Below, in pieces: positions 5,667 through 34,267 of a DNA stretch of 64,000 nt (position 1 is the stretch's first letter; every line of letters starts with the position of its first letter). A program made the position numbers and the translations under genes. The notes beneath the pieces were generated by a model that did not search any database, had not been told where the DNA came from, and worked only from the letters and a program-made list of their open reading frames with translations. The DNA is taken from contig CBDFMI010000006.1 of the NCBI GenBank assembly GCA_965249615.1, forward strand, positions 444,132-508,131. Reading direction: 5' to 3'. Origin of the DNA: a bacterium. Its GTDB lineage: Bacteria; UBA8248; JACPRG01; G963555815.

Positions 5667-5769
5667 GGCGCCACTTTTTTACTAACAGATGTTCTCATCC
5701 AATCAGCCCATTCGCATCTGCTGTTCTCTTAATATATCGGTCTTCTATCGTCTGTGGGGAGGAGAAAAG

Positions 5770-9794: not shown

Positions 9795-9831
9795 AGGTTA
9801 AAGGGCTCGACTCGGACTTGGTGCACACAGC

Positions 9832-12039: not shown

Positions 12040-12129
12040 GGGTTAAAAAGTTCGCGTCGATCCTGGTGAAAAAGCAGGCTCACCTTTGGCCCGCGATCGG
12101 GTTTTTAGTTTGAGAGGACGTGGGTAAGA

Positions 12130-13806: not shown

Positions 13807-14878
13807 GATGGCAGGTCTGATGACGAAAGTCTCCCATGCCCTTCGAGGGGGTTGGGGGACCCTTTTGAAGGTCGGGGTGAGTGGACTGCTCATCCTTGTC
13901 CTCATTTGGCAGGTGGATTTCGATCGGCTTTGGGTCGTCGTCCGGGATATGTCCCCCGCCTGGCTCCTCCTGGCGCTCTTCTTCAAGTCGGGAGGGGTAT
14001 TCTCGAGCATCCTTCGGTGGCGAGTGCTTCTGAAGGGACAGGACCTCGCCGTCCCTTTAAAAGTCCTCACCTCCTCCTTTCTCGAAGGCCGTTTCTTCGG
14101 CACCTTCACGCCGAGCACCATCGGCCTTGACGCCTATCGAACGTATGACCTGGCCAAGTATTCCGGCCGAACAGCGGCCTCGGTTTCAGTCACATTGGTG
14201 GATAAGGTGATCGGGCTGTTCTCTCTCTCCTTTCTCGTGGCGGTCACCTCATTTGCCGGCGCCCGGTTTGTTGGAGGGCAAGGGGTCTTCTCCCTTCTCC
14301 TCGTCTTCTGTGTCCCCCTCTCCCTGTCCCTGATCTTTCTCCTTTTTCCGGGGCTCCTTGGCCGACTCGTCGACATCAGGAGGTGGAAATCAGGAGGATG
14401 GGCGGAGAAGATGGGCCGTTTCGTCGAAACCGTCACCGTCTATCGCCACCACCGGATCCTCATTGTTCAGGCGGTCGGGCTCGCTATCTTGGTCCACCTT
14501 GGGACCACGCTCATGTATTACGGGACGGCCCTTTCGGTGCAAGCCCCGGTCAGCCCCTTGGACATCCTCTTCGTTGGGCCCCTGATGATCACGGCGACGG
14601 TCATCCCTCTTTCTGTGGCCGGGATCGGGGTCCGTGAGGGGACCTTTGTCTTCTTCCTCACTCGGGTGGGGATCGAGGCGGAGGCCGCCATCCTTCTCGC
14701 CTTTCTCGGGTTCCTCGTAGGCGAGGTCATCAGCCTTTTCGGAGGCTTCATCTTCCTGTTGCGCTCCCACGCGTATCATCGGCGTGAGGGGGGGGTCGCC
14801 GGGGCCGCGGAAAGCGGCCTGGGCAAAGCCGGGGGTGAGGAAGAGGCCGTGGGGACAAAGAAAGAGATTGGCTCTTGA
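13796..14878 (+). CDS. Flippase-like / lysyl-phosphatidylglycerol-synthase-type transmembrane-domain protein (UPF0104)
   Basis: ~8 TM segments; the LLILVLIWQVDFDRLWVVVRDMSP and GTFTPSTIGLDAYRTYDL pattern is typical of this family; overlaps neighbouring genes, suggesting translational coupling; exact start (13796, 13808 or 13820) uncertain. Confidence 0.65.
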   Translation: MRTEMAGLMTKVSHALRGGWGTLLKVGVSGLLILVLIWQVDFDRLWVVVRDMSPAWLLLALFFKSGGVFSSILRWRVLLKGQDLAVPLKVLTSSFLEGRFFGTFTPSTIGLDAYRTYDLAKYSGRTAASVSVTLVDKVIGLFSLSFLVAVTSFAGARFVGGQGVFSLLLVFCVPLSLSLIFLLFPGLLGRLVDIRRWKSGGWAEKMGRFVETVTVYRHHRILIVQAVGLAILVHLGTTLMYYGTALSVQAPVSPLDILFVGPLMITATVIPLSVAGIGVREGTFVFFLTRVGIEAEAAILLAFLGFLVGEVISLFGGFIFLLRSHAYHRREGGVAGAAESGLGKAGGEEEAVGTKKEIGS

Positions 14879-16551
14879 GACGCCTCCTCATCATCGGCGT
14901 CGACGCCGGCACCCTGGACCTCATCGAGCCGTGGGCCCGAGCGGGTGATCTCCCCCATCTGGCCCGTCTCCTCAGGGAGGGGGCCTATGGGCGAGTCCAG
15001 TCGACCCTCCCCCCCTCCACCTATCCCGCCTGGACCTCCTTCATGACCGGTCAGAACCCCGGGCGGCACGGTCTCGTGGACTTCACCTTGAGGGAGGGAG
15101 GGCGCTATGCCGTCAGATTCGCCAGCTCCCGAGACCGGCAAAGTGCTAGTTTGTGGGGGATCCTCAGTGAGGCCGGCCGAAGAGTCGCCGTCCTCGGCAT
15201 GCCCGCCACATACCCCCCTGAAGCCGTCAACGGCTGTATGGTCAGCGGATTCGACTCCCCCCTAGCATGGCGTCTCAACGAGAGCTTTTTTCATCCTCGA
15301 GGGCTCCACCGGGAGGTCATACAGGAGGCGGGACTCTTCCCGCTCTCGGCCTGCCGGGAGGATCGGATCGGAAAGGGCTGGCACGAGCGGGCCTATCGGG
15401 AGATCCTGAAATCACTGGAGCAAGAAACTCGCGTGGCGGAGTACCTCCTGGGCCGGGAAGCGTGGGATTGCTTCTGCGTCGTCTTCGGCCAGACAGATAC
15501 GGTGTGCCATCATTTCTGGAAATTCTTCGACCCATCCTCTCCCCGATATGACTCAGAGGGGGCGAGGCGCTTTGGAGACGCCATCCGTCAAGTCTATCGG
15601 CGTGTGGATTCAGCCATCGGTTCCCTGCTGCAAAAGGCGCCCGATGACGTCACGGTCCTCATCGTCTCGGACCACGGAGCGGGGGGGGCAGGAAACCAGA
15701 TTATTCATTTAAACGCTTGGCTGGCCGGGGAGGGCCATCTGACCTTTCGAAAGGGGGGGGTGGGCTACCGTGCCCTTTCAGCCCTGAAGACGCTGGGCCT
15801 CGGCTATCTCCCGAGGAGGGTTCAAGAACAGGTCTTTCGTGCGGGCGGGGGCAGGCTGGCAAATGGGCTAGAATCCCGCTTGCGTTTCGGCCAGATCGAA
15901 TGGGCGAAGACCCGGGTCTATTCCGAGGAGCTGGGTTATTTCCCCTCTCTTTGGATCAACCTTCGGGGGAGGGAGCCTCAGGGGACGGTGGAGCCCGGCA
16001 GGGAATATGAGGATCTGAGGGACGAGATCATCAGCCGCTTAGAGGTTCTCAGACACCCCGTCACGGGGAGGCGCCTCGTTGAGCGGGCCGTTCGGCGAGA
16101 GGAGGTTTATTGGGGCCCCTTTGTGGACCGGGTTCCTGACATTCTCCTGGAGCTCGCCCTCGACGAGGGCTATAGCTACTCCTGCCTTCGAAGTCCAGCC
16201 CGCTCCCAGGGCCCCTTCGTTCGCTCTCTCCAGAGAGCGGAGGGGGCCAGGGGCCAGGGGATGAACGGCTCACACCGACCAGAGGGGTTTTTCGTTCTCT
16301 CGGGTGAGGGGGTGCGCCCGGGGAAGTGCCGGTTCACCCCCCATCTCATGGACTTTGCCCCGACGCTTCTCGCCCTTTTGGGGATCACCCCTTCGGTGGG
16401 GATGGACGGTCGGGTCTTGGAAGAAGTCCTGAGCGTCCCTGAGCCTCATCCCGTCCCCGTCGCCGTGGCAGGGGAAGAGACGCCTTCGGCGGCCCAGGGG
16501 TGGGAAGGCACGGCCTTCCGGCGGCTTCGGGACCTTGGATACCTGGAATGA
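14875..16551 (+). CDS. Alkaline-phosphatase-superfamily enzyme (type I phosphodiesterase family), paralog 2
   Basis: TTG start overlapping upstream stop (TTGA); IIGVDAGTLDLIEPW...LPPSTYPAWTSFMTGQNPGRHGLVDF; ends ...FRRLRDLGYLE. Confidence 0.8.
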   Translation: MRRLLIIGVDAGTLDLIEPWARAGDLPHLARLLREGAYGRVQSTLPPSTYPAWTSFMTGQNPGRHGLVDFTLREGGRYAVRFASSRDRQSASLWGILSEAGRRVAVLGMPATYPPEAVNGCMVSGFDSPLAWRLNESFFHPRGLHREVIQEAGLFPLSACREDRIGKGWHERAYREILKSLEQETRVAEYLLGREAWDCFCVVFGQTDTVCHHFWKFFDPSSPRYDSEGARRFGDAIRQVYRRVDSAIGSLLQKAPDDVTVLIVSDHGAGGAGNQIIHLNAWLAGEGHLTFRKGGVGYRALSALKTLGLGYLPRRVQEQVFRAGGGRLANGLESRLRFGQIEWAKTRVYSEELGYFPSLWINLRGREPQGTVEPGREYEDLRDEIISRLEVLRHPVTGRRLVERAVRREEVYWGPFVDRVPDILLELALDEGYSYSCLRSPARSQGPFVRSLQRAEGARGQGMNGSHRPEGFFVLSGEGVRPGKCRFTPHLMDFAPTLLALLGITPSVGMDGRVLEEVLSVPEPHPVPVAVAGEETPSAAQGWEGTAFRRLRDLGYLE

Positions 16552-17768
16552 GTGGAGAGAAAGGATCTCGTCGGAAGGTGGCCATGGTGGCCCCCTGTCC
16601 CTTCCCAAGCGTTCAGGGCTCCCAGATCCTGATCCAGGATCTGGCCGGGGGCCTCGAGAGGAGGGGACACGAGGTCCACGTGGTCACTTACCCCTTCGGG
16701 GGCTCCCGTCCGACCGCTTCCTTGCGGATCCACCGGGCTGCCTGTCCCCTTCGTTATGCCGTGGACCACCCGGGCCCTCATCTCTATAAACCTTTTCTGG
16801 ACCTCTTCGTCTTGAGAGAGCTCCTGCGGGTCATCCGCGGGGAGGGGATTGAGCTCCTCCACGCCCACAGCTATGAGGGGTTGCTCATCTCCCTGCTGGC
16901 CGGAAGGTGGACGGGCATTCCCGTCCTCTATCACAGCCACACCCTCCTCGAGGAGGAGCTCCCCACCTATTTTCGGGCCTCGTGGAAGCGCGCCCTGGCG
17001 CATTGGGTGGGCCGACTGCTGGACCGACAGCTTCCGCGTCGGTCAGACCATTGCATTGCCCTTTGTCAGAGAACCCTTGGGGCCTTTCGGGCCTTGGGGG
17101 TGGCGGCGGATCGCTCTTCCTGCATTCGTCCTCTGATCTTTTCCCCCGCCGATAAAACTCCTTCCAGGGTGGATGTAGAGCGCCATCCCTTCATCCTCTA
17201 TACGGGAAACCTCCACCCGTATCAGGATCTCAATCTCCTGATGGAGGGGTTCGCCGAGGTGGCCTCGAGGCTCTCAGAGGTCCGCCTGGTTATCGCCACC
17301 CATTCTGACCCTTCCCATTACGCCGCCCTGGCAAGGGCCCTGGGGCTGTCGGAGCGGGTCTCCTTTCGCGTGAAACCTCCCTTGGATGAAGAGTGGGGTT
17401 TGATGCGGAGGGCCGACCTCCTCGTCTGTCCGCGCCTTCGGTGCTCCGGCTACCCCATCAAGCTTTTGAACTACCTGGCGGCTGGAAGGCCCATCCTCGT
17501 CAGTGAGGGCTCGGCCGAGGGGATTCGCCATGGCGAGAACGGCTACGTTGTCTCTCGGCCTGAACCGAAAACCCTGGCGGAGGGGGCTATTCAAATCCTT
17601 CAGTCCCCCGCCTTGGCAAAACGGTTGGGCGAAGGGGCGGCCCGGACCTACCGGGAGGAGGTGGCGGAAGAGCGCTCCTTGTCGGCCATCGAGGCCATCT
17701 ACACGCAGTGTCTGGGGGAGGAGGGGAACGCGGCCCTCCTCGCCCACCCGAGGGAAATGGCCTCATGA
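16548..17768 (+). CDS. Glycosyltransferase family 4 (GT-B fold)
   Basis: ATG overlaps the upstream stop (ATGA); VAMVAPCPFPSVQGSQILIQDLAGGLERRGHEVHVV N-terminal GT4 motif; C-terminal GTLHPYQDL...E...E-type block. Confidence 0.8.
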   Translation: MSGEKGSRRKVAMVAPCPFPSVQGSQILIQDLAGGLERRGHEVHVVTYPFGGSRPTASLRIHRAACPLRYAVDHPGPHLYKPFLDLFVLRELLRVIRGEGIELLHAHSYEGLLISLLAGRWTGIPVLYHSHTLLEEELPTYFRASWKRALAHWVGRLLDRQLPRRSDHCIALCQRTLGAFRALGVAADRSSCIRPLIFSPADKTPSRVDVERHPFILYTGNLHPYQDLNLLMEGFAEVASRLSEVRLVIATHSDPSHYAALARALGLSERVSFRVKPPLDEEWGLMRRADLLVCPRLRCSGYPIKLLNYLAAGRPILVSEGSAEGIRHGENGYVVSRPEPKTLAEGAIQILQSPALAKRLGEGAARTYREEVAEERSLSAIEAIYTQCLGEEGNAALLAHPREMAS

Positions 17769-19168
17769 CCAAGGTCTTGATCCTGGGCCTCGATTGCGCA
17801 GACCCTCGCCTGGTCTTTGACCGCTGGCGACAAGAACTTCCGAACCTCAGACAGCTCATGGAGGCCGGCGTCTGGGGCCCTCTTCAGAGCACCATCCCCC
17901 CCATCACGGTCCCAGCCTGGGCCTGCATGATGACGGGGCGGGACCCTGGAGAGCTAGGGATCTATGGGTTCCGAAACCGGACCTCCTATCAGTACGGGGC
18001 CCTGGGGATCACCAGCTCTCTCTCGGTCCAAGAGGAGACCCTGTGGGACATCCTGGGCCGCACCGGCCGGGAGGTGGTGGTCGTCGGGGTCCCTCCTTCA
18101 TATCCTGTGAAGCCCGTCCGGGGCAGCCTCATCTCCTGCTTTCTCACCCCGAACGCCGAGGTCCCTTTCACGCATCCCCCTGAGCTCAAGGAGGAGGTTC
18201 AGCGTCTTGCCGGCGGGTACCTGTTTGACGTGGAGGGATTCCGGACCGACGACAAGCCCCGGCTCCTCCAACAGATCCACGAGATGACAGAAAAACGCTT
18301 TAGGGTCCTGAAACACCTACTCACCCGAAAGCCGTGGGACTTTTTTATGTCGATGGAGATCGGGGTGGACCGCATGCATCACGGCTTTTGGAAATTTCAC
18401 GATGAGGGCCACATCAAGCACCCCCCGCAAAACCCCTATCAGCACGTCATTCTGGACTATTACCGCTATGTGGACAAGGAGATCGGTGAGCTGGTGGAGT
18501 CCGTCGACGAGGACACGGTCATCATCGTCCTCTCTGATCACGGGGTGAAGAGGATGGAGGGGGGGCTGTGCGTCAACGAATGGCTCATGAAGCAGAAATA
18601 TCTGAGCCTCTCCGCCTACCCCAAGGAGCTCACCTCCCTCAGCAAGCTCGATGTGAACTGGGACCGGACCATGGTCTGGGGAGAAGGGGGGTACTATGGC
18701 CGGATCTATCTCAACGTAAAGGGCCGGGAACCCCAGGGGGTCATCGCCCCAAATGACGTGGAGAAGATCCGGGCAGAGCTGAAACAGGGCATGGAAGAGC
18801 TTTCCGACGAATCAGGGCGCCCCCTCGGGACCCGCGTATTCTATCCCGAGGAGGTCTATCAGGAGGTCCGGAGGATCCCGCCCGATCTCATCGTCTATTT
18901 TGGAGACCTGGACTGGCGCTCTGTCGGGACCGTGGGCCATGGCTCGATCCACACCCGAGAGAATGACACGGGCCCTGACGACGCCAACCACGACACCCAC
19001 GGGATATTCATCATGGCGAAGAAGGCGGACCTCAAAGGGGGCGGGACCGGTCTGGGAACCCGCCTCGACGGTCTCAGCCTCTACGACGTGACCCCCACCG
19101 TCCTGGACCTCCTTGGCCTTCCCATCCCACCCTCGATGCACGGGCGAGTGATTTCTCCTAGAGCCTGA
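17765..19168 (+). CDS. Alkaline-phosphatase-superfamily enzyme (type I phosphodiesterase family), paralog 3
   Basis: ATGA overlap with the glycosyltransferase; MTKVLILGLDCADPRLVFDRW...IPPITVPAWACMMTGRDPGELGIYGF; lacks the LGY tail. Confidence 0.8.
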   Translation: MTKVLILGLDCADPRLVFDRWRQELPNLRQLMEAGVWGPLQSTIPPITVPAWACMMTGRDPGELGIYGFRNRTSYQYGALGITSSLSVQEETLWDILGRTGREVVVVGVPPSYPVKPVRGSLISCFLTPNAEVPFTHPPELKEEVQRLAGGYLFDVEGFRTDDKPRLLQQIHEMTEKRFRVLKHLLTRKPWDFFMSMEIGVDRMHHGFWKFHDEGHIKHPPQNPYQHVILDYYRYVDKEIGELVESVDEDTVIIVLSDHGVKRMEGGLCVNEWLMKQKYLSLSAYPKELTSLSKLDVNWDRTMVWGEGGYYGRIYLNVKGREPQGVIAPNDVEKIRAELKQGMEELSDESGRPLGTRVFYPEEVYQEVRRIPPDLIVYFGDLDWRSVGTVGHGSIHTRENDTGPDDANHDTHGIFIMAKKADLKGGGTGLGTRLDGLSLYDVTPTVLDLLGLPIPPSMHGRVISPRA

Positions 19169-22045: not shown

Positions 22046-23464
22046 TTATCTCCCGGTGGCGGGCTCTAAATTCACCTCGATATAGCGCGCAATCTGGGGG
22101 TGGACTCGGGAGATCTCGTGGTAGATCTGCTGAGCCGCCCTCCGGTAGGTGAAGTGCCCCTTGGGGTCGGAGCGGAGCTTCACCACGTGCATCACCTCCC
22201 GGAGGTTCATCTGCCAGAGGAAGCGGCGGTGATGAGCGTTTAGGACAAAGTAGGGGGCCTCGTTCGGAAAATCCGCCAAAAACTTCTCAAAACACTTCTC
22301 GGCCTTGTCCACCCCTGCCAAATATTCTTGTTTCAACCCGGCGTCCTCGACGAGCTCGGGGATCGAGAACCCGTGGCGGATGGTCGGGGCCTGAGTGCTC
22401 TGGCTGCACATCCGGTGGCGCTTGAGGTCGAGGAAGGCCCCCTGGTCCACGAGACACTCGAAGGTGTAGGTCAGGTACTCCATCTCCCGGATGGGGATGT
22501 CAAAACGCTCTATTCGGCTCAGGGCCTCTTCAATGACTTTTTCCCGAGCTTCTTGGGGCATCTGTGCCACCCTCTCCCGGATGGCCTCGTAGGGGAGATG
22601 ACTGTATTTGAACAAGATGGCCGCCGCCAGGGCGACGTCGGGGTTTTCGGGGACCTGAACCAGCCGGGCATAATTTTCCTGAGGGCCGGACGCCTTTGAG
22701 ACCGGGGAGCCGTTGGTCATGGTAGAGGCGACGAGCTTCCTGAGGGCCGCCTCCGTGTCTCTCAGATAGGCGTTGTCGTCTGCATACTTGACGAGGGTTG
22801 GGGCGGCCGCCTGGCTGACCTCCTTCAGGGTGGTCCCGATCTGTTGGATTTCGGACAGGTCGTGGGAGAGCATCTTGGTGATGGCGTGCTCCAGGTGTCG
22901 GGCGTTGACGGTCATCCCCACATTGGCCAGGGCGGCGGTGGGGAGGAGAAAGCGCGAGCGGTCGAGGGCGTGGGCCCTCACGCGGACGTTGTATCCCCGA
23001 TCCGTCTCGTTCTCCCTCCTTTGGAGGACCCCCTTCTCTTTGATGAAGGCGTCCAGCTTCGTCTGGACGGCGTGGTAGTTCTCGAACATCCACTGCATGG
23101 CCTCGCGGTATTTTTGGCCGAGGGGTGAGGCGTCCACCTCGTCTGGGACATAATAGTCGTCCGGCTTGAAAACCTGATAGCGGGAGGATTTTTCGGTGTA
23201 GGAGGCGAGACGGTTCGCCTCGATGACTTCCGTTGCGTAGCGCGAAACATTCTCGATGGCGATGGAGAGGACGGCGTGCTCGGCCACCGAGGCGTGCCCA
23301 TAGCCGACGACCCATTTCTCATGGAACTCGGCCGAGGCGCTTTCGGTCAGCTCCTTGGCGATCTCGTCAAAGGCCTTTGGGGAGCGACTCGTCTTCGCGA
23401 AGGCGACGGCGACCACCTCGGGCGGGAGGTCCCGGAGGAGATAGATGCGGCGTTTTTTGTCCAT
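22046..23464 (-). CDS. thyX: FAD-dependent thymidylate synthase ThyX, tandem-fused two-repeat form
   Basis: Two ThyX-like halves: the first ...HASVAEHAVLSIAIENVSRYATEVIEANRLASYTEKSSRY (RHR degenerated to ANR), the second with an intact RHR signature LKRHRMCSQSTQ; both halves retain the VNAR/LNAH segment. Confidence 0.7.
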   Translation of the reverse strand: MDKKRRIYLLRDLPPEVVAVAFAKTSRSPKAFDEIAKELTESASAEFHEKWVVGYGHASVAEHAVLSIAIENVSRYATEVIEANRLASYTEKSSRYQVFKPDDYYVPDEVDASPLGQKYREAMQWMFENYHAVQTKLDAFIKEKGVLQRRENETDRGYNVRVRAHALDRSRFLLPTAALANVGMTVNARHLEHAITKMLSHDLSEIQQIGTTLKEVSQAAAPTLVKYADDNAYLRDTEAALRKLVASTMTNGSPVSKASGPQENYARLVQVPENPDVALAAAILFKYSHLPYEAIRERVAQMPQEAREKVIEEALSRIERFDIPIREMEYLTYTFECLVDQGAFLDLKRHRMCSQSTQAPTIRHGFSIPELVEDAGLKQEYLAGVDKAEKCFEKFLADFPNEAPYFVLNAHHRRFLWQMNLREVMHVVKLRSDPKGHFTYRRAAQQIYHEISRVHPQIARYIEVNLEPATGR

Positions 23465-23595: not shown

Positions 23596-25074
23596 CTATG
23601 GGACCAGGGCGATGGCCGACGCCCCTTGGAAGAAAGGGGCCGCTGAGGCCTTAACCGCGGAGAGCAGGGGGTCGGGATAGAGCCCGATCAGGAGGACTCC
23701 GACCACCATCAAGCCGAGGGCGAGACGGAGTGGGACGGAGGTGGAGATTTCGACCTTTCCGGCCGGTTCCACCATGTACATATTCACGACGACCTTGAAG
23801 TAGTAGTAGACGGAGAGGACGCTGTTCAGGACCCCGATGAGGGCCAGCCAGATATAGCCTGACTCGATGGCCGCCGAGAAGAGATAGAACTTCCCGACAA
23901 AACCCGCCGTCGGCGGGACCCCCGCCAGAGAGAGAAAGAAGACGACAAAGCCGATGCCGGCCAGGGGGTGGGCCCTCGCGAGTCCCCGAAAATCCTCCAC
24001 CCGGTCTCCTCGGAAGTTTTGGCGGCACAGGAGGATCACCATGGCGAAGGCGCCCATGTTCATGAAGATGTAGACGGCCAGGTAGAGGAGGACGCTTGCC
24101 ATCCCGATCTCGCTGCCGACGACGAGGCCGATCATGACGTAGCCGGCATGGGCCACCGAAGAGTAGGCCAGGAGCCGTTTCAGGTTGGACTGAACCATGG
24201 CGGCGATGTTGCCCCAGGTCATGCTGAAGACGGCCAGGAGCCAGAGGAGAATGGCCCACTGGTCGGCGATCCCCTCGAAGGCGACGGCGAAGATCCGGAG
24301 CAACCCCGCGAAGGCCGCCGCCTTGGTCCCCACGCTCATGAAGGCCGTGATGGAGGTGGGGGCTCCCTGGTAGGCGTCCGGGGCCCACATGTGGAAGGGG
24401 ACGAGGGCGATTTTGAAGGCGAACCCAGCCACGATCATGATGACAGAGAGGGTGAGGAGAATATTGGGGCCTGTCATCTCCCCGAAGGCGGCATGCATGG
24501 CGGCGAGGTTCGTCGTCCCCGTAATGCCGTAAGCGAGTGCGATTCCGTAGAGGATGATCCCCGAACTGAAAGCCCCCAGGAGAAAGTATTTGATCCCTCC
24601 CTCTTGGGACAAGAGATCGCGCTTCATGAAGCCGACCAGCATGTAGATGGGGATGGAGAGAAGCTCCATGCCGATGTAGATGGTCAGGAGGTCGCTCCCC
24701 CCGGCCATCACCATCATCCCGATAACGCTGAAGAGGATCAGGGCGTAGTACTCCCCCAGGTGAATCTCCTCTATCGAGAGGTATCGCAGGGAGATGAGGA
24801 CCGTGAGGACGGTGATCGCCAGAAAGATGAACTTGAAGAAGATGGCGAAGGAGTCCACCCGGTACATGTCGCTGAAGAGGCTGGCCTCCATCCCGATCAG
24901 GGGGAGGGTGAGGAGGCCCGTCACGACGACCCCGAAAAGCGTCAGGAGGCCCAAGAGCGCCTTTCGCCTCTGGGGGACAAAGAGGTCCACCAAAATCACG
25001 AGGCAAACGAGGACCGTCATGGCGATCTCCGGCATGATCGCAAAAAGGTTGACGGCGGGGAGCTTAAGCGGCAT
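23596..25074 (-). CDS. nuoN: NADH-quinone oxidoreductase subunit N
   Basis: 492 aa, 14-TM antiporter-like subunit at the end of the nuo operon. Confidence 0.88.
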   Translation of the reverse strand: MPLKLPAVNLFAIMPEIAMTVLVCLVILVDLFVPQRRKALLGLLTLFGVVVTGLLTLPLIGMEASLFSDMYRVDSFAIFFKFIFLAITVLTVLISLRYLSIEEIHLGEYYALILFSVIGMMVMAGGSDLLTIYIGMELLSIPIYMLVGFMKRDLLSQEGGIKYFLLGAFSSGIILYGIALAYGITGTTNLAAMHAAFGEMTGPNILLTLSVIMIVAGFAFKIALVPFHMWAPDAYQGAPTSITAFMSVGTKAAAFAGLLRIFAVAFEGIADQWAILLWLLAVFSMTWGNIAAMVQSNLKRLLAYSSVAHAGYVMIGLVVGSEIGMASVLLYLAVYIFMNMGAFAMVILLCRQNFRGDRVEDFRGLARAHPLAGIGFVVFFLSLAGVPPTAGFVGKFYLFSAAIESGYIWLALIGVLNSVLSVYYYFKVVVNMYMVEPAGKVEISTSVPLRLALGLMVVGVLLIGLYPDPLLSAVKASAAPFFQGASAIALVP

Positions 25075-25077
25075 CTC

Positions 25078-26673
25078 CTACCTGCTCCATTCTGTGGTCA
25101 GGTACTGGTGCTGTCTCAAGGCCTCAGACGCCTGGGCGGACAGGCTTTCGGGCGTCCCCCGGGCCAGCTCCACGTGCTGGATGAGGTTCTTGACGCTCGG
25201 TTCCATGATTTCGAGGAAAGGCTTGGGGTACATCCCGATCCAGAACATGAGAAGGAGGATGGGGAGCATGTAGGCGACTTCGCGGCGGTTCAAGTCCGGG
25301 AGGTTTTGGTTCTCCTCATGGGTCACGGCCCCGAACATCATCCGCTGGAAGAGCCAGAGCATATAGCCCGCCCCGAGGACGATCCCCGTGACAGCGAAGG
25401 CGGCGTACACCGTGCTCGTCTGAAAGACCCCAAGGAGGATGAGGAATTCTCCCACGAAGCCGTTGAGGCCGGGAAGCCCAATGGACGAGAACATGGCGAT
25501 GGCGAAGACCACCGTGAAGACCGGCATCACGCGCGCGAGGCCGCCGTAGTCGGCGATCATTCGGCTGTGTCTTCGCTCATAGAGGATCCCCACGATCAAG
25601 AAGAGGGCCCCGGTGGAGAGACCGTGGTTCAGGTTCTGAAGGAGGGCCCCAAGAAGACCCTGGGGGTTCAGGGCGAAGATCCCCAGCATGACGAACCCGA
25701 GATGGCTCACGGAGCTATAGGCCACCAATTTTTTAATGTCTTTCTGGGCCATGGCCACAAGGGCCCCGTAGATGATCCCGATGATGGCCAGAAGGGCGAT
25801 GAAGGGGACGAGGTTGAAACTGGCCCTGGGCAGCAGGGGGAGGCTGAAGCGGACGAAGCCGTAGGTCCCCATCTTGAGGAGCACCCCGGCCAGGATGACA
25901 CTCCCCGCCGTGGGGGCCTCCACGTGGGCGTCGGGAAGCCAGGTGTGGAAGGGGAACAAGGGGACCTTGATGGCGAAGCCCACAAAGAGGGCGAGGAAGA
26001 TCCAGAACTGAAAGTTCTCGGGCAGCTTCGGCGCCATCCGGTAGAGCTCAAGCAAATTAAAGGTGAACTCGCCGGAGCCGTAGATGGGGTCGGCGTTCAG
26101 GAAGTAAAGGGCCAGAAAACCCAGGAGGAGGAGGACGCTTCCGAAGAGTGTGTAGAGGAAAAACTTGATGGCGGCGTAGAGCTTCCGAGCCCCCCCCCAG
26201 ATGCCGATGAGGAAATACATGGGGACCAGCATGACCTCCCAGAAGACGTAGAACAGGAAAACGTCAAGGGCCATGAAGACCCCCAGCATCCCTGTCTCCA
26301 GGATGAGGAGGCTCACGTAGTACTCTTTTTGCCGCTCTCCGATGTTGCTGAAGGAGCAGAGAACCGCGACGGAGCTGAGGAGCGTGGTCAGGATGATGAG
26401 GGGGAGGCTGATCCCATCGATGCCAAAGAAGTATTGGACCCCGATGGATGGGATCCACTCCGCGCGTTCGACGAACTGCATTTGGACATTGCTCGGCTCA
26501 AAGTAGGGGATCATGAAGAGTGAGGAAAAGAGGGAGATCAGCGAGACGCCGAAGGCGAACCATTTGATGACGAGTGGTCGCTGCCTGGAGAAGAGGAGCA
26601 TGATCAAGACGGCCCCTACGATGGGGACGTAGGCCGTCATCGAAAGGACGGGGAAGCCGAGGGCGTTTGTCAT
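25078..26673 (-). CDS. nuoM: NADH-quinone oxidoreductase subunit M
   Basis: 531 aa antiporter-like subunit; conserved WLPDAHVEAPTAGSVILAGVLLK block. Confidence 0.9.
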   Translation of the reverse strand: MTNALGFPVLSMTAYVPIVGAVLIMLLFSRQRPLVIKWFAFGVSLISLFSSLFMIPYFEPSNVQMQFVERAEWIPSIGVQYFFGIDGISLPLIILTTLLSSVAVLCSFSNIGERQKEYYVSLLILETGMLGVFMALDVFLFYVFWEVMLVPMYFLIGIWGGARKLYAAIKFFLYTLFGSVLLLLGFLALYFLNADPIYGSGEFTFNLLELYRMAPKLPENFQFWIFLALFVGFAIKVPLFPFHTWLPDAHVEAPTAGSVILAGVLLKMGTYGFVRFSLPLLPRASFNLVPFIALLAIIGIIYGALVAMAQKDIKKLVAYSSVSHLGFVMLGIFALNPQGLLGALLQNLNHGLSTGALFLIVGILYERRHSRMIADYGGLARVMPVFTVVFAIAMFSSIGLPGLNGFVGEFLILLGVFQTSTVYAAFAVTGIVLGAGYMLWLFQRMMFGAVTHEENQNLPDLNRREVAYMLPILLLMFWIGMYPKPFLEIMEPSVKNLIQHVELARGTPESLSAQASEALRQHQYLTTEWSR

Positions 26674-26714
26674 AGAGGCGAAACTCCCAGTCAGGACTTA
26701 GAAGTTATCTTTCC

Positions 26715-28748
26715 TCATCCGAGAAGGAGGAAGAGGCTCACGGTGATGAAAATGCCAAGGAGCATGACCAGGGCATAGTTCTGGACGACGCCCGTCTGAA
26801 GGCGGCGAAGCCCCCGGGCCCAGTTGATGAGAATGACCCCGATCCCATTCACGGCGCCGTCCACCGTTTGAAGATCGAAAATGCCAGACAGCTTGCTGAG
26901 GGCCACCGTTCCCCATGAGACCCCGTTGACAGCCCCGTCCACACCCTTGGCGTCAGTGCCCGAACAAAGATGAGCCAGGCGTATCGAGGGCCGTATGAAG
27001 ACGGCGTGGTAGATCTCGTCCACCCAGTATTTATTGAGGAGGAGCCGGTGGACTCCACGGAATCGCTCGGCCACCTTGGCGGGGAGGTCTGGCCGCTTTC
27101 GATACATGTGGCGGGCCAGCATCCACCCCGACACCCCCACCACCACCGAAAAGACGGCGAGCCACAGCTCCAGAAGGCCGAATCTCCCTGATTTGTTTTC
27201 GGCTGAAGCCGCCACCAGCTGGATGCCGGCATGGCCCCCGTCTGGGAAGACTGGCGCCAAATGCTCGTGAAAGAAGTTCATCTGCGGGATGCCGACCCAG
27301 CCCCCCAGCAGGGCGAGGACGGCGAGGATCACCAAGGGAACCGTCATCACGGCGGGGGATTCGTGGACATGGGAGACGACGTGAGGGTCGCCCCGGGATT
27401 CTCCGTAGAAGGCGAGATAGATGAGGCGGAACATGTAGAAGGCCGTCATGAAGGCGGTGATGATCCCCAGGGCGTAGAGGAAATAGTGGCCGCCCTTAAA
27501 AGTCTCGGCCAGGATCTCGTCTTTGCTGAAGAAGCCCGCGAAGGGCGGAATCCCGGCGATGGCGAGGGCCCCCATGTAAAAGGTGATGGCCGTGACGGGG
27601 AGGCGGCGACGAAGCCCCCCCATGTAGCGAAGGTCCTGCCTCCGCCCCTCCTCCGGGTCGGAGTGCAGGGCGTGGATGACGCTCCCCGCGCCGAGGAACA
27701 TGAGGCCTTTGAAAAAGGCGTGGGTCATGAGATGAAAGATCCCGGCCCCGAAGGCCCCCACCCCAAGGGCCATAAACATGTAGCCGAGCTGGCTCACCGT
27801 GGAGTAGGCCAGGACCTTTTTGATGTCATTCTGGACGAGCGCAATGGAGGCGGCGAAGATGGCCGTGAGGGCCCCGACCAGAGCCACCACGCTCATAGAC
27901 ACGGGGGAGAGGAGATACAAGGCGTTCGAGCGGGCCACCATGTAAACCCCGGCGGTCACCATGGTGGCGGCGTGGATGAGGGCGCTGACCGAAGTGGGGC
28001 CTTCCATGGCGTCCGGAAGCCAGGTGTAGAGGGGAAGCTGGGCCGATTTCCCCACGGCCCCCACAAAGAGGAGGAGTGTAATGGCCGTCGCCGCGCCGGC
28101 GATGGCGGAGCCCGCCACCGCTGCCCCGGCCTGATCGAAGACGCCTGCGTAGTTCAGCGTCCCGAATGTCTGGAAGATGAGAAAGAGGCCGAGGAGGAAA
28201 CTCGCGTCCCCGATGCGGTTCATGATGAAGGCCTTTTTTCCCGCGTCGGCGGCTGACTTCTTGTGGTACCAAAAGCCGATGAGGAGATAAGAACAGAGCC
28301 CCACCCCCTCCCAGCCGACGAACATGAGGAGGTAGTTGTTGGCCAGGATGAGAAGGAGCATCGAGAACATGAAGAGGTTCAGGTAGGCGAAGTAGCGGGA
28401 GTAGCCCGGGTCCCCACGCATATACCCGGCCGAGTAGACGTGGATGACGAACCCCACCCCCGTTACCACGAAGAGCATCACGGCGCTGAGGGGGTCCAGA
28501 AGGAACGCCACCTCGACCAGAAGGCTCGGCACCGGGATCCACTCAAAGAGGCGCACCTCACCGCTCAGGCCCCGGAAGACCGCCTGATAGAGGAGGAGGA
28601 GGGACAGCCCCAGAGAAAGGCCGGTGGAGATAATGGCGGGCCAGTGGGCTTTCCTTCCGATGTAGCGCCCGAGGAATCCGTTCACCAAGACCCCCAGGGC
28701 CGGAAAGACGAGGACGAGAGGCAGAAGATTCAGCACTGATATCACCAC
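26715..28748 (-). CDS. nuoL: NADH-quinone oxidoreductase subunit L
   Basis: 677 aa; antiporter-like core plus C-terminal long-helix extension; [25 protein letters not shown]. Confidence 0.9.
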
Positions 28749-29044
28749 TTCAACAGGTTGATCTCGTCGACGTTTAGGGCGGCTCTTTGCCGGTTGATGG
28801 AGATGATGAGGGCGAGTCCGACGGCGGCCTCGGCCGCCGCCACCGTGATGACAAAGATGGCGAAGACCTGCCCCGTTAGGTTCCCATGGGCCCTGGAGAA
28901 GGCTATCAGGGTCAGGTTGACGGCGTTCAGCATGAGTTCGATGGACATCAGGATGATCATGATGTTTCGCCTGGTCAGGACCCCGACGGCCCCAATCAGG
29001 AAGATGATGCCCCCCAGGGCGAGGTAGTAAGGAATGGGAACCAT
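28742..29044 (-). CDS. nuoK: NADH-quinone oxidoreductase subunit K
   Basis: 100 aa, 3 TM; conserved E in TM2 and TM3 ([11 protein letters not shown]). Confidence 0.88.
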
Positions 29045-29566
29045 TTACTTAATCTCTCGCTTGGCCAGCACGATGGCCCCGATCATGGCCGCCAGGAGGA
29101 GGAGGGAGGCCACCTCAAAGGGGAAGAGGAACTGGGTGTAGAGAACGCCCCCGAAGGCCTCGGTGTTGCCTATCTCCGCGGCGGCCTTCGCCCCCTCTGC
29201 GACAACCCCCGCCGGGGGCAGCAATTCGAAGAATCCCCCCAACAGGATGACCAGGAACTCGGCGGCCAGGAGCCCACCGATGATGAAAGCGAAGGCCCGC
29301 TGGCGGTTCCACTGACGGACCCCCATCTGTTCGCGCACATTAACGAGCATAATGACGAAGACGTAGAGCATCATGATGGCCCCGGCGTAGATGAGGATCT
29401 GGATGGCAGCGAGAAACTCCGCGCCCAGCATGACGTAAAGGGCAGCCACGAAGAAGAAGCTGAGGAGGAGAGCGAGGGCGCTGTGGACCACGTTTCTCAG
29501 GCTGATGACCATCACGGAGGCGGCGATCATCCCGACCGCGAAGATGAGAAAGAATGGCCATTCCAT
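29045..29566 (-). CDS. nuoJ: NADH-quinone oxidoreductase subunit J
   Basis: 173 aa, 5 TM, position between nuoH and nuoK. Confidence 0.85.
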   Translation of the reverse strand: MEWPFFLIFAVGMIAASVMVISLRNVVHSALALLLSFFFVAALYVMLGAEFLAAIQILIYAGAIMMLYVFVIMLVNVREQMGVRQWNRQRAFAFIIGGLLAAEFLVILLGGFFELLPPAGVVAEGAKAAAEIGNTEAFGGVLYTQFLFPFEVASLLLLAAMIGAIVLAKREIK

Positions 29567-29579
29567 CTTGGAATCCCCT

Positions 29580-30662
29580 TTAAACGAGCTGCAGGACGAT
29601 ACCGGTGATAAAAATGTTCAAGAGAGCCAGCGGGAACATCATCTTCCACCCCAGCGCCATGAGCCGGTCATAGCGAAAGCGCGGCAGGGTCCCCCTGATC
29701 CAGATGAACATGAACATCCCGAACAGCACCTTGAGGAAGAACCAGAGAGGTCCTGAGATGAGGACGGCCTTCGTCACCCCCCCGATGTTCTGGACCAGGG
29801 AGGCCAACCCCACAGAGGCGGCGCCGACGGCCGATGCCACCAGGAAGGTGACCAGGTCCACGCCGCCCGAGATGATGGTTTCCAGGAACTGGGGGATTTG
29901 CCAGCCCCCGAAGAAGAGGATCGCCCCGATGGAGCAGATCACCATCATGTTGGCGTACTCAGCCAGGAAGAAGAAGGCGAACTTCATGCCGCTGTACTCG
30001 GTGTGGAAGCCCCCCACCAGCTCTGTCTCGGCCTCGGGGAGGTCGAAGGGGAGGCGGTTGGTCTCGGCGAGCCCGGCGACGAAGTAGAGGACGAAAGCCA
30101 GGGGCTGATAGAAGATGAACCAGACGTTCTTCTGGGCCTCGACGATCTCAAGGAGGTTCAGGGACCCGGCCACCATGAGAGGGCCGATTAGGGCGAACCC
30201 CAAAAAAATCTCGTAGCTGATGAGTTGGGCCGCGCTCCGGAACCCCCCCAGCAGGGAATACTTGCTCCCCGAGGCCCAGCCCGCCATGACGATGCCGAAG
30301 ACACCGAGGGAGGAGATCCCGAGGATGTAGAGGATCCCGATGTTGATGTTGGCGATGAAGAAGTTCCCCGAGATGGGGATGACCGAGTAGACGATGAAGG
30401 CGGGGATGAGGGCGAAGAGCGGGGCCATCAGGAAGACCGGTCGATCCGCCTGGTGCGGGATGATGTCTTCCTTGAGGAAGAGTTTTAGACCGTCGGCGAT
30501 GGGCTGAAGGAGGCCGTGGTAGCCGACCCGCATGGGCCCCATGCGCACCTGAATGTGCCCGATGACCTTCCGCTCGAAGTAGACCATGTAGGCCACCAGG
30601 AACGAGACCGCCCCCCAGATAATCAGGATCTTGATGAGGGCGAAACCAACCTCAAGCCACAT
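29580..30662 (-). CDS. nuoH: NADH-quinone oxidoreductase subunit H
   Basis: 360 aa; [21 protein letters not shown] and EYANMM motifs. Confidence 0.9.
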
Positions 30663-30701
30663 CTGTGTGCACCTTGCCTCCGCTAGGGGGGGTCGCTGAC
30701 C

Positions 30702-31826
30702 TCAGCGATCCACTTCCCCGAGCACAATATCGATGCTTCCGATGGCGGCGACGGCGTCCGAGATGAGGCCGCCCTGCATCATGGTGGAGATCGACTGCAG
30801 ATTCACGAAAGAGGGGGGACGGATCCTCAGCCGGTAAGCCCGGTCGGTCCCGTCACTGACTAGATAGTAGCCCAGCTCCCCCTTGGGACTCTCGATCCGG
30901 TGGTAGACTTCCCCCTTTTTTGGCTTCAACACCCGGGGAACCTTGGCCATGGTCTTTCCGGAGGGGAGGTCGGCGGCGGCCTGCTCGATGATGAAGGCGC
31001 TCTGGCGCATCTCCTCCACACGGACGAGGTAACGGTCATAGACATCGCCATTCTTTCCCACCGGGACGGTGAAGTCAAAATCCTCGTAGGCGGCGTAGGG
31101 CTCTGCACGCCGCACGTCATGGGCCACGCCGGAGGCCCTCAGGATGGGCCCACTGGCCCCGAGGTCAATGGCGTCCTCGGCGGAGAGAACGGCCACTCCG
31201 CGGGTCCTGGACTGCCAGATACGGTTCTCGGTGAGGAGGTCTTCATAATCGTAGATGGCCTTGGGGAACTCGCGGGCGAACTCCAAACACTTGTCGTAAA
31301 AAAGTTTGGGGGGGTCGTGGTAGACGCCTCCGACGCGGAAGGCATGAACCGTGAGCCTCGCCCCAAAGGCGGTCTCGAAAAGATCCAGGACCTTCTCTCG
31401 GTCCCGGAAACAATAGAGGAAGGCCGTCATGGCCCCGATGTCCAGGGCGTGGGTGGCGAGCCAGAGGAGATGACTCGCGATCCGGGTGAGTTCGGCTGTG
31501 ATGACGCGGATGTACTGGGCCCGGGCCGGAACCTCCATCTGAGCAAGCTTTTCCACCGTCTCCACATATCCCAGGTTGTTGGCTGGGGAGGCCACATAAT
31601 CCGTTCGGTCTGTGTAGGGAACGAACTGGGCGTAGGTGATGTTCTCGCCGATCTTCTCGACGCCCCGGTGGAGATAACCGATGTCCACGTCAACCCCTTG
31701 CACAATCTCCCCCTTCAGCCGAAGGATGACGCGAAGGACCCCGTGGGTGCTGGGGTGCTGGGGCCCCATGTTGAGGATGAGCTCTTCCGTCTGGGGGACG
31801 ATGGTCTCTGGGGTGACCTGGGTCAT
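30702..31826 (-). CDS. nuoD: NADH-quinone oxidoreductase subunit D (49-kDa)
   Basis: 374 aa; LNMGPQHPSTHGVLR N-terminal signature. Confidence 0.9.
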   Translation of the reverse strand: MTQVTPETIVPQTEELILNMGPQHPSTHGVLRVILRLKGEIVQGVDVDIGYLHRGVEKIGENITYAQFVPYTDRTDYVASPANNLGYVETVEKLAQMEVPARAQYIRVITAELTRIASHLLWLATHALDIGAMTAFLYCFRDREKVLDLFETAFGARLTVHAFRVGGVYHDPPKLFYDKCLEFAREFPKAIYDYEDLLTENRIWQSRTRGVAVLSAEDAIDLGASGPILRASGVAHDVRRAEPYAAYEDFDFTVPVGKNGDVYDRYLVRVEEMRQSAFIIEQAAADLPSGKTMAKVPRVLKPKKGEVYHRIESPKGELGYYLVSDGTDRAYRLRIRPPSFVNLQSISTMMQGGLISDAVAAIGSIDIVLGEVDR

Positions 31827-31830
31827 AGTC

Positions 31831-32622
31831 TCACTCTCGATGGGCCATGGGCCGGGCGGCGGGCGGGATATGGCTTTCTACCCATTGGAGCCCGAACCCA
31901 TCCCCGCGAACGGGATACTCCTTTCGGAGGGGATGGCCCTCCCAGTCGTCCGGGAGGAGGATCCGTCTGAGGTCGGGGTGGCCCTCGAAATCAATCCCCA
32001 CCATGTCGTAGGCCTCTCGTTCGAGCCAGTTGGCCGTCCGCCAGATGTCAGACACGGTCGGGGCCGTCTCCGCCTCCCCAAGGCGGACCTTCAGCCGAAG
32101 GCGCCCCCTTCGCTCCAAGCCATAGAGGTGATAGACCACCTCGAAGGGGCGATCCCGGTCCGGGTAGTGGACACCGCAGAGGTCCGACAGGAAATTGAAA
32201 TGGTGTTGGTCTTTGAGGTGAAGACAAAGTGGGTGGATCTGGTCCCGCCGGACGACGACGGTGAGTTCGTCCTCTTTTCCCATGAAGGCGGAGACCTCTT
32301 CCACCCCTTCCCCTGAAAAGGCGCGAATGGCCTTCACCAGGGGGAGTTCCTCGAGATTTTCGCCGGGCTTTTTGTCCGCTTTGACCGGTGGCGGGGCCTT
32401 TTTTTGTTCCGAGGCCGGGGGTTTCTCAGCCGGAGGCGCTTTGGGCTCTTCGGATTCAGCCGTTGGAGGGGAAGCTTCGGGAGCGGCTGACTCTTCCCCC
32501 TCGGGCTTTTTGTCCGCCTTGACCGGCGGTGAGGCCTCTTTTTGTTCCGAGGCCGGGGGTTTCTCAGCCGAGGACGCTTCGGGCTCCTCGGGCTCAGCGG
32601 GGGCGGAGTTCTCTTCGGTCAC
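31831..32622 (-). CDS. nuoC: NADH-quinone oxidoreductase subunit C (30-kDa) with ~85-aa Ala/Pro/Glu/Lys-rich N-terminal extension
   Basis: C-terminal 175 aa are canonical NuoC ([19 protein letters not shown]); the N-terminal extension contains a duplicated [19 protein letters not shown] unit; the true start could be downstream. Confidence 0.8.
32364..32600. repeat. ~138-bp tandem direct duplication inside the 5' part of nuoC
   Basis: cgggctttttgtccgcTTTGACCGGtGGcGgGGCCTtTTTTTGTTCCGAGGCCGGGGGTTTCTCAGCCG... recurs at 32364 and 32502 with few substitutions. Confidence 0.7.
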
Positions 32623-32742
32623 CTCGTCTCTCCTCTAGACGACGACCCATCTAACCTGTGCAAAAATTCACAAAAGGCGGCCAAAAAAAAGCTTCCCGTT
32701 GTTCCTTTGGCCTCCCTGACTCACGGTCATCGTTTCCCTGGG

Positions 32743-33219
32743 CTACTTTCGAAGAAACTTTTCCTGCTGGATCTTCTCCTGCAGCTTCAGAATTCCCCAC
32801 ATCAAGGCCTCCGGGCGGGGAGGGCAGCCCGTGAGATAGATGTCGACGGGGACCACTTGGTCCACGCCCTGGAGGGTGGAGTAGGTGTTGAAAGGTCCTC
32901 CTGCCGTCGAGCAGCTCCCCATGGAGACCACCCATCGGGGTTCTGCCATCTGGTCATAGATCTTGCGCAAAACCGGGGCCATCTTGTAGGTGACGGTCCC
33001 GGCCACGATCATCACGTCCGACTGACGCGGGCTCGCCCTGAAGATGACCCCAAAGCGGTCGAGGTCATATCGGGAGGCGCCTGTGGCCATCATCTCAATC
33101 GCGCAGCAGGCCAGGCCGAACTGCATGGGCCAAAGGGCTGATTTTCGGGCCCAATTGACCAGGTAATCGAGGGTTGTCGTGAAGATGTTCTCCTCGAAGC
33201 GGTGTTCCACTACACCCAT
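32743..33219 (-). CDS. nuoB: NADH-quinone oxidoreductase subunit B (20-kDa, N2 cluster)
   Basis: 158 aa; CCAIEMM...GSCSTAGG...CPPRPE cysteine ligands. Confidence 0.92.
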
Positions 33220-33602
33220 TTAAGGGCCCCTTTGCGCCAGGCGTAGAAGTAACCGACGAGGAGGATGAGAATGAAGAGCATCATCTCGACGAGGCCAAAT
33301 AGGCCGAGCCGGCCGTAGACCACCGCCCAGGGAAACAGGAAGACCGCCTCCACGTCAAAAAGGAGGAAGAGGATGGCGACGATGTAAAACCGGATGGAAA
33401 ATTGTTCCCCCGCCCGCGTGAGGGGCGGGATCCCGCACTCATAGGGGGAGAGTTTCTCGGTGTCTGGCCGGTTGGGTCGGATGAGATAGGCCAGGAGGAG
33501 GGTCCCGATTCCGAAGGCCGCCACCACCAGGATGAAAATGAAGATTGGGACATAGGGATGGATGACAGTGTAGTCACTGAAAAACCGGTTAACCAGTTCC
33601 AC
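33210..33602 (-). CDS. nuoA: NADH-quinone oxidoreductase subunit A
   Basis: 130 aa, 3 TM; [13 protein letters not shown] motif; overlaps nuoB. Confidence 0.88.
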
Positions 33603-33714
33603 GCCGGGCCCCCTCGAAACCCCACATCCCTACTTAGTAATTATACTTTATTAGTCCCCGGAAGCGAAGACGCAACGGGAAAAAAGGTCTCCTGATCGGT
33701 CCTTGGATTTTTCT

Positions 33715-34032
33715 TCACGGCTTGAAGAAGACCTCGGTCAGACAGGGGTCGATCTCTGGTTTCAATTCCAGATAACGCTCACTTCGCTGGAGCTGGTTGA
33801 AGAGGGCCGTCTTTCCGGCTACGCCCAGTTCTGACCAGTTGACGCAAGCCTTGGCCTCCTTAACGAGGAGGTCCAGGCGCTTCGCCCGCTCTTTCTCATC
33901 TTCCTCATCGCCCGTCTCGGCCAGGGCCCGAAGGCGCTGGATGCACCCGGAGAGGGTGTCTTCCCGGGAAGGTAGAGACTCGAAGATATAGAGATAGCCC
34001 TCTATCCGCTGACGCAGGGCCTGCGCGTCCAT
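33715..34032 (-). CDS. Hypothetical small protein
   Basis: Internal ATG at 34032 gives 106 aa (MDAQALRQRIEGYLYIFESL...); charged, likely helical; the longer ORF-track version has an Arg-rich improbable N-terminus. Confidence 0.3.
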   Translation of the reverse strand: MDAQALRQRIEGYLYIFESLPSREDTLSGCIQRLRALAETGDEEDEKERAKRLDLLVKEAKACVNWSELGVAGKTALFNQLQRSERYLELKPEIDPCLTEVFFKP

Positions 34033-34267
34033 GGCCCCCCACTTCTTCTTCTCGCTCACCAGGCAACTCCGCCGTCTTAGGGCTTTCCGCGGGCGAGGAC
34101 CGTGGTCCCCACCATCGCGGCGAACCGGATAAGGAAACGACCTCAAAAGGGCGAAAGAAGATCTCTGAAGATAAAGCGCCTTGAGCGATCCTGGTTCCTT
34201 TCCTTGATTTATAGAGCTTCGCAGGCGAAAATGCACCCTCTTTTGCTTTCACGAAAGAGGTTTCGGC

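Follow-up and report, generated by a model that had tools for sequence, protein, structure and literature searches.

NuoI, the sole bridge to the N2 cluster, is to our knowledge present in every member of the complex I superfamily whose structure has been studied. The locus described here raises the question of how a set of complex I genes that lacks nuoI can serve a redox enzyme. It lies on contig CBDFMI010000006.1 of assembly GCA_965249615.1, from a bacterium of the GTDB lineage UBA8248, within a stretch of 64,000 nucleotides (positions 444,132 to 508,131 of the contig) that is called the window throughout. Ten nuo genes run contiguously on its minus strand from 33602 to 23596 in the order A-B-C-D-H-J-K-L-M-N. 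Here, we report that this operon is a real, under-described variant of a known system, that orthologous operons in seven other lineages stand directly beside a complete nuo operon, and that NuoI is probably supplied in trans from a gene outside the ten-gene operon. A nuoI missing from the operon does not mean a NuoI missing from the enzyme.

The ten-gene operon

Each of the ten open reading frames (ORFs) matches a single complex I family in Pfam. Compared with the 11-subunit operons without nuoE, nuoF and nuoG (EFG-less operons; A, B, C, D, H, I, J, K, L, M, N), nuoI alone is missing from the set. From the stop codon of nuoH to the ATG of nuoJ there are 13 nucleotides (nt), and an AGGGG ribosome-binding site lies inside them. 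A sequence-only reading of the locus had claimed ten contiguous minus-strand nuo genes without EFG, a 13-bp nuoH-nuoJ gap too short to house nuoI, and the absence of nuoI. The first claim is borne out by the Pfam and NCBIfam matches of the ten ORFs and the second by the junction itself, while the third was found to hold across the 64 kb of the window in motif, profile and single-sequence searches. No CxxCxxCxxxC motif of a [4Fe-4S] cluster occurs in the six frames of the window, and a NuoI profile together with single-sequence queries for NuoE, NuoF, NuoG and NuoI gave nothing better than E = 0.17 against all of its six-frame segments. Canonical NuoF, NuoG, NuoI and NuoN of a sister species left no remnant in the window by tblastn. 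A redox partner or replacement iron-sulphur (Fe-S) protein was found neither in the operon nor elsewhere in the 64 kb.

The arrangement is not an artefact of assembly. Three further assemblies of the same species (L171, L172 and L173; contigs of 2.13, 1.42 and 0.72 Mb among them), with about 95% DNA identity to the window, show identical gene order, identical flanks and the same 13-nt H-J junction. The exact proteins of the window were also found on 881-kb contigs in NCBI/ENA, and near-identical ones on contigs of 2.15, 2.13, 1.42, 0.72 and 0.27 Mb. Since four independent assemblies agree on the layout, an assembly error is ruled out.

Tandem nuo operons in sister lineages

The nearest NuoD proteins are found in metagenome-assembled genomes (MAGs) of Nitrospinota, Tectomicrobia and Acidobacteriota. 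Seven lineages, examined by gene neighbourhood, harbour the same ten-gene operon: L001 (Tectomicrobia), L002/3 (Nitrospinota), L086, L087, L088-90, L176 (Nitrospinota, GCA_046758845.1) and L179. In all seven it is located immediately downstream of a complete 14-gene nuoA-N operon with nuoE, nuoF, nuoG and nuoI, and the direct H-J junction of the ten-gene operon spans 16-97 nt where measured. The tandem 14+10 loci are thus like the window in their orthologous ten-gene operon and direct H-J junction, and differ from it in that the window species has unrelated genes where they carry the complete operon. NuoD identity to the window ranges from 64 to 82% across these lineages, and the window species forms the sister branch of the group of L087, L088, L176 and L179 (79-82% identical). 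The ten-gene layout is kept across at least eight lineages.

Within one genome the paralogous NuoB, NuoD and NuoH are 50-57% identical, and the nearby nuoI of the relatives belongs to a phylogenetically different, complete operon. This association points to subunit sharing between isozymes rather than to a simple operon split. The genes missing from the ten-gene operon, those for E, F, G and I, encode exactly the whole Fe-S wire upstream of N2; the duplicated ones encode the quinone module and the pump.

The spacer before nuoA contains a conserved GTGAAAAAAAGT motif just past the upstream stop codon (L088 11483-11641; L087 893-1036; L176 11531-11718; window 33603-33714). In the sister species the spacer between nuoN of the first operon and nuoA of the second harbours a TTGACG...TATAAT promoter-like site and no terminator-like hairpin, and in the window a TATAAT is found at a different position. 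A promoter-like site without a terminator would fit separate regulation of the two operons, if loosely.

Distribution of nuoI-less operons

The wider distribution was assessed in 80 loci from one-genome-per-species GTDB contigs among the NuoD matches listed; the window's own species is not among them. Both nuoH and nuoJ are visible in 59 of these loci, and nuoI is missing between them in 43, nearly all from Acidobacteriota. In most of the listed nuoI-less loci the gaps between envelopes are too small for a hidden gene. At least 42 of the 43 also lack nuoB (in one locus nuoB was not scorable). As many as 23 carry nuoE, nuoF and nuoG (A-C-D-E-F-G-H-J-K-L-M) and yet have neither nuoB nor nuoI; the remaining 20 are without nuoEFG and read A-C-D-H-J-K-L-M-N in the 19 where nuoA is visible. 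The other 16 of the 59 contain nuoI, including the 11-gene operon A-B-C-D-H-I-J-K-L-M-N of Pyrinomonadaceae and of two MAGs of deltaproteobacterial type. The absence of nuoI, which the sequence-only reading considered unusual, is accordingly not rare among the closest homologues listed.

In Terriglobia/Acidiferrales (L004-L082) both the EFG-containing and the EFG-less nuo operons are without nuoB and nuoI, neither of which is seen within 10 kb. Without N6a/b and N2, electrons from NADH have no route to quinone in a complex I, so NuoB and NuoI of the acidobacterial EFG operons must come in trans. The gene contents suggest that acidobacterial nuoB and nuoI are encoded elsewhere, and they may be shared by two isozymes. 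Operons of the type nuoACDHJKLMN have been noted in acidobacterial MAGs, one missing nuoI being ascribed to MAG incompleteness (Hausmann et al., bioRxiv 10.1101/197269), and most Acidobacteriota have been scored as having a complete complex I (PMC12361115). Trans supply of NuoB and NuoI in this phylum would agree with both reports.

The sequence-only reading had also proposed a phylogeny of NuoD and NuoH, of which the NuoD part was carried out. A neighbour-joining tree of NuoD, without bootstrap support, places the window in a monophyletic clade of ten-gene operons from Nitrospinota and Tectomicrobia, which lies inside a larger EFG-less clade that includes nuoI-containing operons; EFG-less operons are thus its nearest relatives by this one subunit. 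The occurrence of both nuoI-containing and nuoI-less operons in one EFG-less clade implies that nuoI has been lost from the operon more than once. The tandem lineages are the only nuoI-less ones whose wider gene content is visible, and these also possess a complete operon.

Conserved residues and class of the enzyme

The ten genes are given in Table 1; none of them encodes an Fe-S subunit upstream of N2. All four N2 ligands of NuoB (C63, C64, C129 and C158 in E. coli numbering) are cysteines, the tandem CC included, and the best match of this subunit in the PDB is mitochondrial PSST (E = 8e-67). NuoD contains HPSTHG with the quinone-site histidine and DRTDY with the tyrosine, and has Cys motifs at neither end. 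The acidic loop residues and E-channel residues of NuoH are kept, and the Lys, Glu, His and Asp residues checked against the E. coli numbering are all retained in NuoA, NuoJ, NuoK and the three antiporter-like subunits. In total 34 of 35 checked residues are conserved; the exception is V65 of NuoJ, which is Met here and likewise Met in the canonical comparison copy. The core of complex I is thus present in NuoB with its N2 cysteines, NuoD with its His and Tyr, and the pump chain; within the 64-kb window neither NuoI is encoded nor the NuoE, NuoF and NuoG of a 14-subunit NADH-oxidising enzyme, which carry flavin mononucleotide and clusters N1a, N3, N1b, N4 and N5.

The ratio of non-synonymous to synonymous substitution rates (dN/dS) between strains was about 0.19 over the nine codon-alignable genes (about 266 synonymous and 150 non-synonymous differences; nuoC was left out for its length difference), compared with 0.16 for thyX. 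The ten genes are under purifying selection, as this ratio indicates.

Other classes of enzyme were considered and rejected. NuoD is without the CxxC cysteines that bind NiFe in Group 4 [NiFe] hydrogenases (Ech/Mbh/Hyc), and the PDB matches to the small subunits of MBH and FHL are far weaker than those to complex I. Scores for the archaeal F420H2 dehydrogenase (Fpo) models fell below their cut-offs throughout (FpoD 381 against 600, FpoH 287 against 475, FpoL 470 against 1050, FpoK 117 against 145, FpoC 82 against 220). With only one nuoM present, the operon is not of the 2M type of complex I either.

Table 1. Genes and other features of the ten-gene nuo operon and its upstream flank, in window positions (aa, amino acids; residues in E. 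coli numbering).
Feature	Positions	Strand	Properties
114-aa ORF	33715-34059	-	About 95% protein identity among four assemblies; no Pfam family; possibly part of the system
nuoA	33210-33602	-	130 aa; Pfam Oxidored_q4, E = 3e-40; D79, E81 kept
nuoB, N2 carrier	32743-33219	-	158 aa; NCBIfam NF005012, 258 bits (cut-off 116)
nuoC	31831-32622	-	263-aa ORF; Pfam Complex1_30kDa, E = 7e-46; 30-kDa domain at aa 122-240
nuoD, quinone-site subunit	30702-31826	-	374 aa; TIGR01962, 499 bits (cut-off 459)
nuoH	29580-30662	-	360 aa; Pfam NADHdh, E = 2e-123; 354 bits (NCBIfam cut-off 305)
NuoH insertion	29760-29888	-	About 43 aa (aa ~259-301); Gly/Ala/Val-rich, hydrophobic; between transmembrane helices (TMH) 7 and 8
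nuoH-nuoJ spacer	29567-29579	-	13 nt; position of nuoI in other operons
nuoJ	29045-29566	-	173 aa; Pfam Oxidored_q3, E = 4e-42
nuoK	28742-29044	-	100 aa; NCBIfam NF004320, 122 bits (cut-off 57); E36, E72 kept
nuoL	26715-28748	-	677 aa; TIGR01974, 750 bits (cut-off 407); E144, K229, K399, D400 kept
nuoM	25078-26673	-	531 aa; TIGR01972, 633 bits (cut-off 264); E144, K234, K265, E407 kept
nuoN	23596-25074	-	492 aa; TIGR01770, 459 bits (cut-off 333); E133, K217, K247, K395 kept

The N-terminal part of nuoC, about 90 aa (window ~32350-32622), is acidic, rich in Pro, Lys and Ala and of low complexity, with an internal repeat of about 45 aa, and its start codon is uncertain. Gene callers place the nuoC start differently in different strains. 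N-terminal extensions of NuoC, of 25-190 aa, are also found in the sister ten-gene operons, their length varying. Antisense to nuoM and nuoN runs an ORF of 851 aa (23968-26523, plus strand), which is almost certainly not a gene but a spurious frame such as G+C-rich genes often have on the opposite strand. Both here and in L087, nuoN is directly followed downstream by thyX (22046-23464, minus strand), whose 472-aa product has two Thy1 matches and roughly double the usual length.

The other genes of the window have housekeeping or envelope functions (dnaN, mreB, tol, ligA, pyk, thyX, sat/cysC, sulfatase-like). Five paralogues of the alkaline phosphatase superfamily (sulfatase / type I phosphodiesterase) at 7674-19168 on the plus strand are interleaved with a lysyl-PG-synthase-like membrane protein and a GT4 glycosyltransferase. 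At 5689-6882, also on the plus strand, is a gene for a class V fructose-1,6-bisphosphate aldolase/phosphatase (FBPase_3, E = 7e-157). This enzyme is typical of archaea and some autotrophic bacteria.

A proposed shared NuoI and the points against it

Within supply in trans, the form that we favour is sharing with a complete nuo operon. The ten genes would provide a second complex I isozyme, belonging to the lineage without the NADH module, with its quinone module (NuoB with N2, NuoC and NuoD) and with the whole of its proton-pumping membrane arm (NuoA, H, J, K, L, M and N). Their product would be a hybrid enzyme relying on the other isozyme for NuoI and perhaps also for NuoEFG. Electrons would travel from N6a/N6b of NuoI to N2 and on to quinone, or in reverse, and their transfer would be coupled to the pumping of protons, as it is in ordinary complex I. 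We infer that the enzyme physically contains NuoI, as a shared subunit rather than a dedicated orphan copy. Among the columns of NuoB, NuoD, NuoH and NuoC that are at least 90% conserved in nuoI-containing operons, 93-98% are retained in the ten-gene type, and only one column changes systematically. That a single NuoI could fit both sets of NuoB, NuoD and NuoH is plausible given the surface conservation across complex I.

Several observations weigh against such sharing. The identity of only 50-57% between the paralogous subunits means that one NuoI must fit rather different partners, and hybrid complex I enzymes have been reported to be rare (Spero et al., PMC4453560). The window species is the only lineage among those examined that is without the upstream 14-gene operon, which is absent from all four assemblies and has left no remnant. 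Its own nuoI was not found in the 64-kb window or in cluster-level database listings. A database search with the canonical NuoN of a sister species returned seven clusters at 77-100% identity, followed by others at about 60-64%, and no listed member lies on contigs of the window species; this listing is at cluster level (15 of 30 members of one cluster are listed) and links only genes that share a contig. The members inspected are tandem loci of other species. Likewise, at cluster level, none of the NuoI clusters of the sister clade (165-173 aa) could be tied to the window species. Ten clusters expanded from a search with canonical NuoI of Tectomicrobia were of the 159-aa type, belonged to the wrong sub-clade and could not be tied to the window species. 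In a metagenome scan with the NuoI of L088 the best match was 56% identical, and the results were dominated by generic ferredoxin-like peptide patterns. As no listed NuoN or NuoI cluster member is tied to the window species, the orthologous 14-gene operon may, as these searches faintly suggest, have been lost rather than moved.

In place of the upstream operon the window species has the conserved ORF of 114 aa, genes for a UbiE-like methyltransferase and a DsbA-like protein, and other genes. The 114-aa product is acidic and probably helical, contains three cysteines and is encoded directly upstream of nuoA; it is absent from the sister species, which have the end of the canonical nuoN at this position. 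Also, in an alignment NuoH of the window species alone carries the hydrophobic insertion given in Table 1, and has 360 aa as compared with 317-327 aa in all sister and canonical NuoH. A relative-rate test between the window and L087, in which the adjacent nuoI is kept, counted 61 and 66 unique changes, respectively, in NuoB, NuoC, NuoD and NuoH, and 164 and 148 in the membrane subunits. With no acceleration in the window lineage, the composition of the enzyme appears to be the same as in L087.

Alternative explanations

The sequence-only reading left two options, a nuoI encoded elsewhere or a different electron-input partner docking on NuoB and NuoD. We favour the former, because every sister lineage has nuoI in a full upstream operon and because acidobacterial nuoI is encoded away even from operons with nuoEFG. 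The latter is unlikely. In a truly NuoI-less enzyme the ten subunits would be self-sufficient, with N2 as the sole Fe-S cluster, and N2 would gain or give up electrons directly through a soluble or membrane partner docked on the surface of NuoB, NuoD and NuoH vacated by NuoI. Such an enzyme would be in keeping with the loss of the upstream canonical operon in a species that could not be linked to any orthologous canonical NuoN or NuoI, with ten genes still held by purifying selection, their rate of evolution unchanged, and with the promoter-like site that the sister ten-gene operons appear to have of their own. The insertion in NuoH and the new, conserved 114-aa ORF upstream of nuoA, both confined to this species, point the same way and might help an electron exchange without NuoI. 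There is a precedent in Mbx-like operons, which use a GltD-like flavoprotein in place of the NuoI homologue (PMC4758237). However, the conserved positions of NuoB, NuoD, NuoH and NuoC show no remodelling, there is no candidate replacement Fe-S protein in the operon and no redox protein in the window, and the failure to find nuoI rests on cluster-level database listings rather than on a genome scan. Every structurally characterised relative that we know of, be it complex I, NDH-1, MBH, MBS or FHL, contains a NuoI homologue. We therefore hold it improbable that the operon encodes a self-sufficient complex I variant that exchanges electrons directly at the vacated NuoI site.

A simple operon split would also place nuoI elsewhere, as a dedicated copy of the EFG-less type seen in the Pyrinomonadaceae operons, encoded alone and serving only this enzyme. 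The closest relatives outside the clade are indeed nuoI-containing 11-gene operons, and the acidobacterial nuoB and nuoI outside operons indicate that orphan copies exist. Nonetheless, in none of seven sister loci was an orphan nuoI found within 10 kb, the only nuoI there being the canonical one, and a split of this kind is doubtful. NuoI of the EFG-less type has diverged strongly from canonical NuoI, scoring 62-65 bits against it, and the nuoI searches were seeded with the canonical type only. It is far less credible still that the operon is a relic in decay, or that it encodes a cation/proton antiporter of complex I descent without redox function. The absent electron-input subunits and the loss of the adjacent canonical operon in the window species would be in line with decay or with such a change of function, but all ten ORFs are intact, dN/dS is about 0.19, the layout has persisted across eight lineages or more, and the N2 cysteines, like the His and Tyr of the quinone site, are kept although an antiporter would not need them. 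Supply of NuoI in trans is thus the reading that we retain.

Implications

In the literature searched, operons of this kind are mentioned only in passing, for acidobacterial MAGs, and neither the ten-gene type nor the tandem 14+10 arrangement was found to have been analysed. If NuoI is shared, complex I isozymes would be built as hybrids around a common Fe-S connector, which bears on their assembly and regulation and, if true, is at odds with the report that hybrid complex I is rare. If N2 is instead served without NuoI, the accepted minimal architecture of the enzyme would change. The composition of the second enzyme matters for models of energy metabolism in Nitrospinota, Tectomicrobia and Acidobacteriota; for Nitrospina, reverse electron flow to ferredoxin driven by a variant complex I has been proposed (PMC3578206). 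It matters as well for genome annotation, where pipelines grade complex I as complete or partial.

Comparison with known systems

NUO-2 of N. gracilis (PMC3578206) has a different arrangement. In Streptomyces the nuo2 genes (PMC8388888) form a second, incomplete nuo operon beside a complete one and presumably lean on the subunits of the first. They differ from the present operon in that nuoI2 is kept, nuoC and nuoEFG have no second copy, and nuoD2 lies apart from the operon (PMC8388888). The window operon has homologues in the acidobacterial nuoACDHJKLMN and nuoACDEFGHJKLMN operons, with NuoD about 60% identical, and there too nuoI is missing between nuoH and nuoJ. These are also without nuoB, whereas the window operon keeps nuoB and drops only nuoI.

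The 11-subunit EFG-less enzymes (Nuo11/NDH-1 of Chlorobi, Campylobacter and Desulfitobacterium, and cyanobacterial NDH-1) have the same core of A, B, C, D, H and J-N, with N2 and the quinone site. The NuoD tree groups the window operon most closely with EFG-less operons, and both are without the NADH module. The 11-subunit operons, however, encode NuoI (NdhI), which carries N6a/N6b on the donor-docking side, and the window operon does not. In cyanobacteria NDH-1L and NDH-1MS are isozymes with a common core and isoform-specific subunits encoded at different loci. There the Q module and most of the membrane arm are common and NdhD/F are swapped, whereas here the Fe-S connector would be common and nearly all else duplicated.

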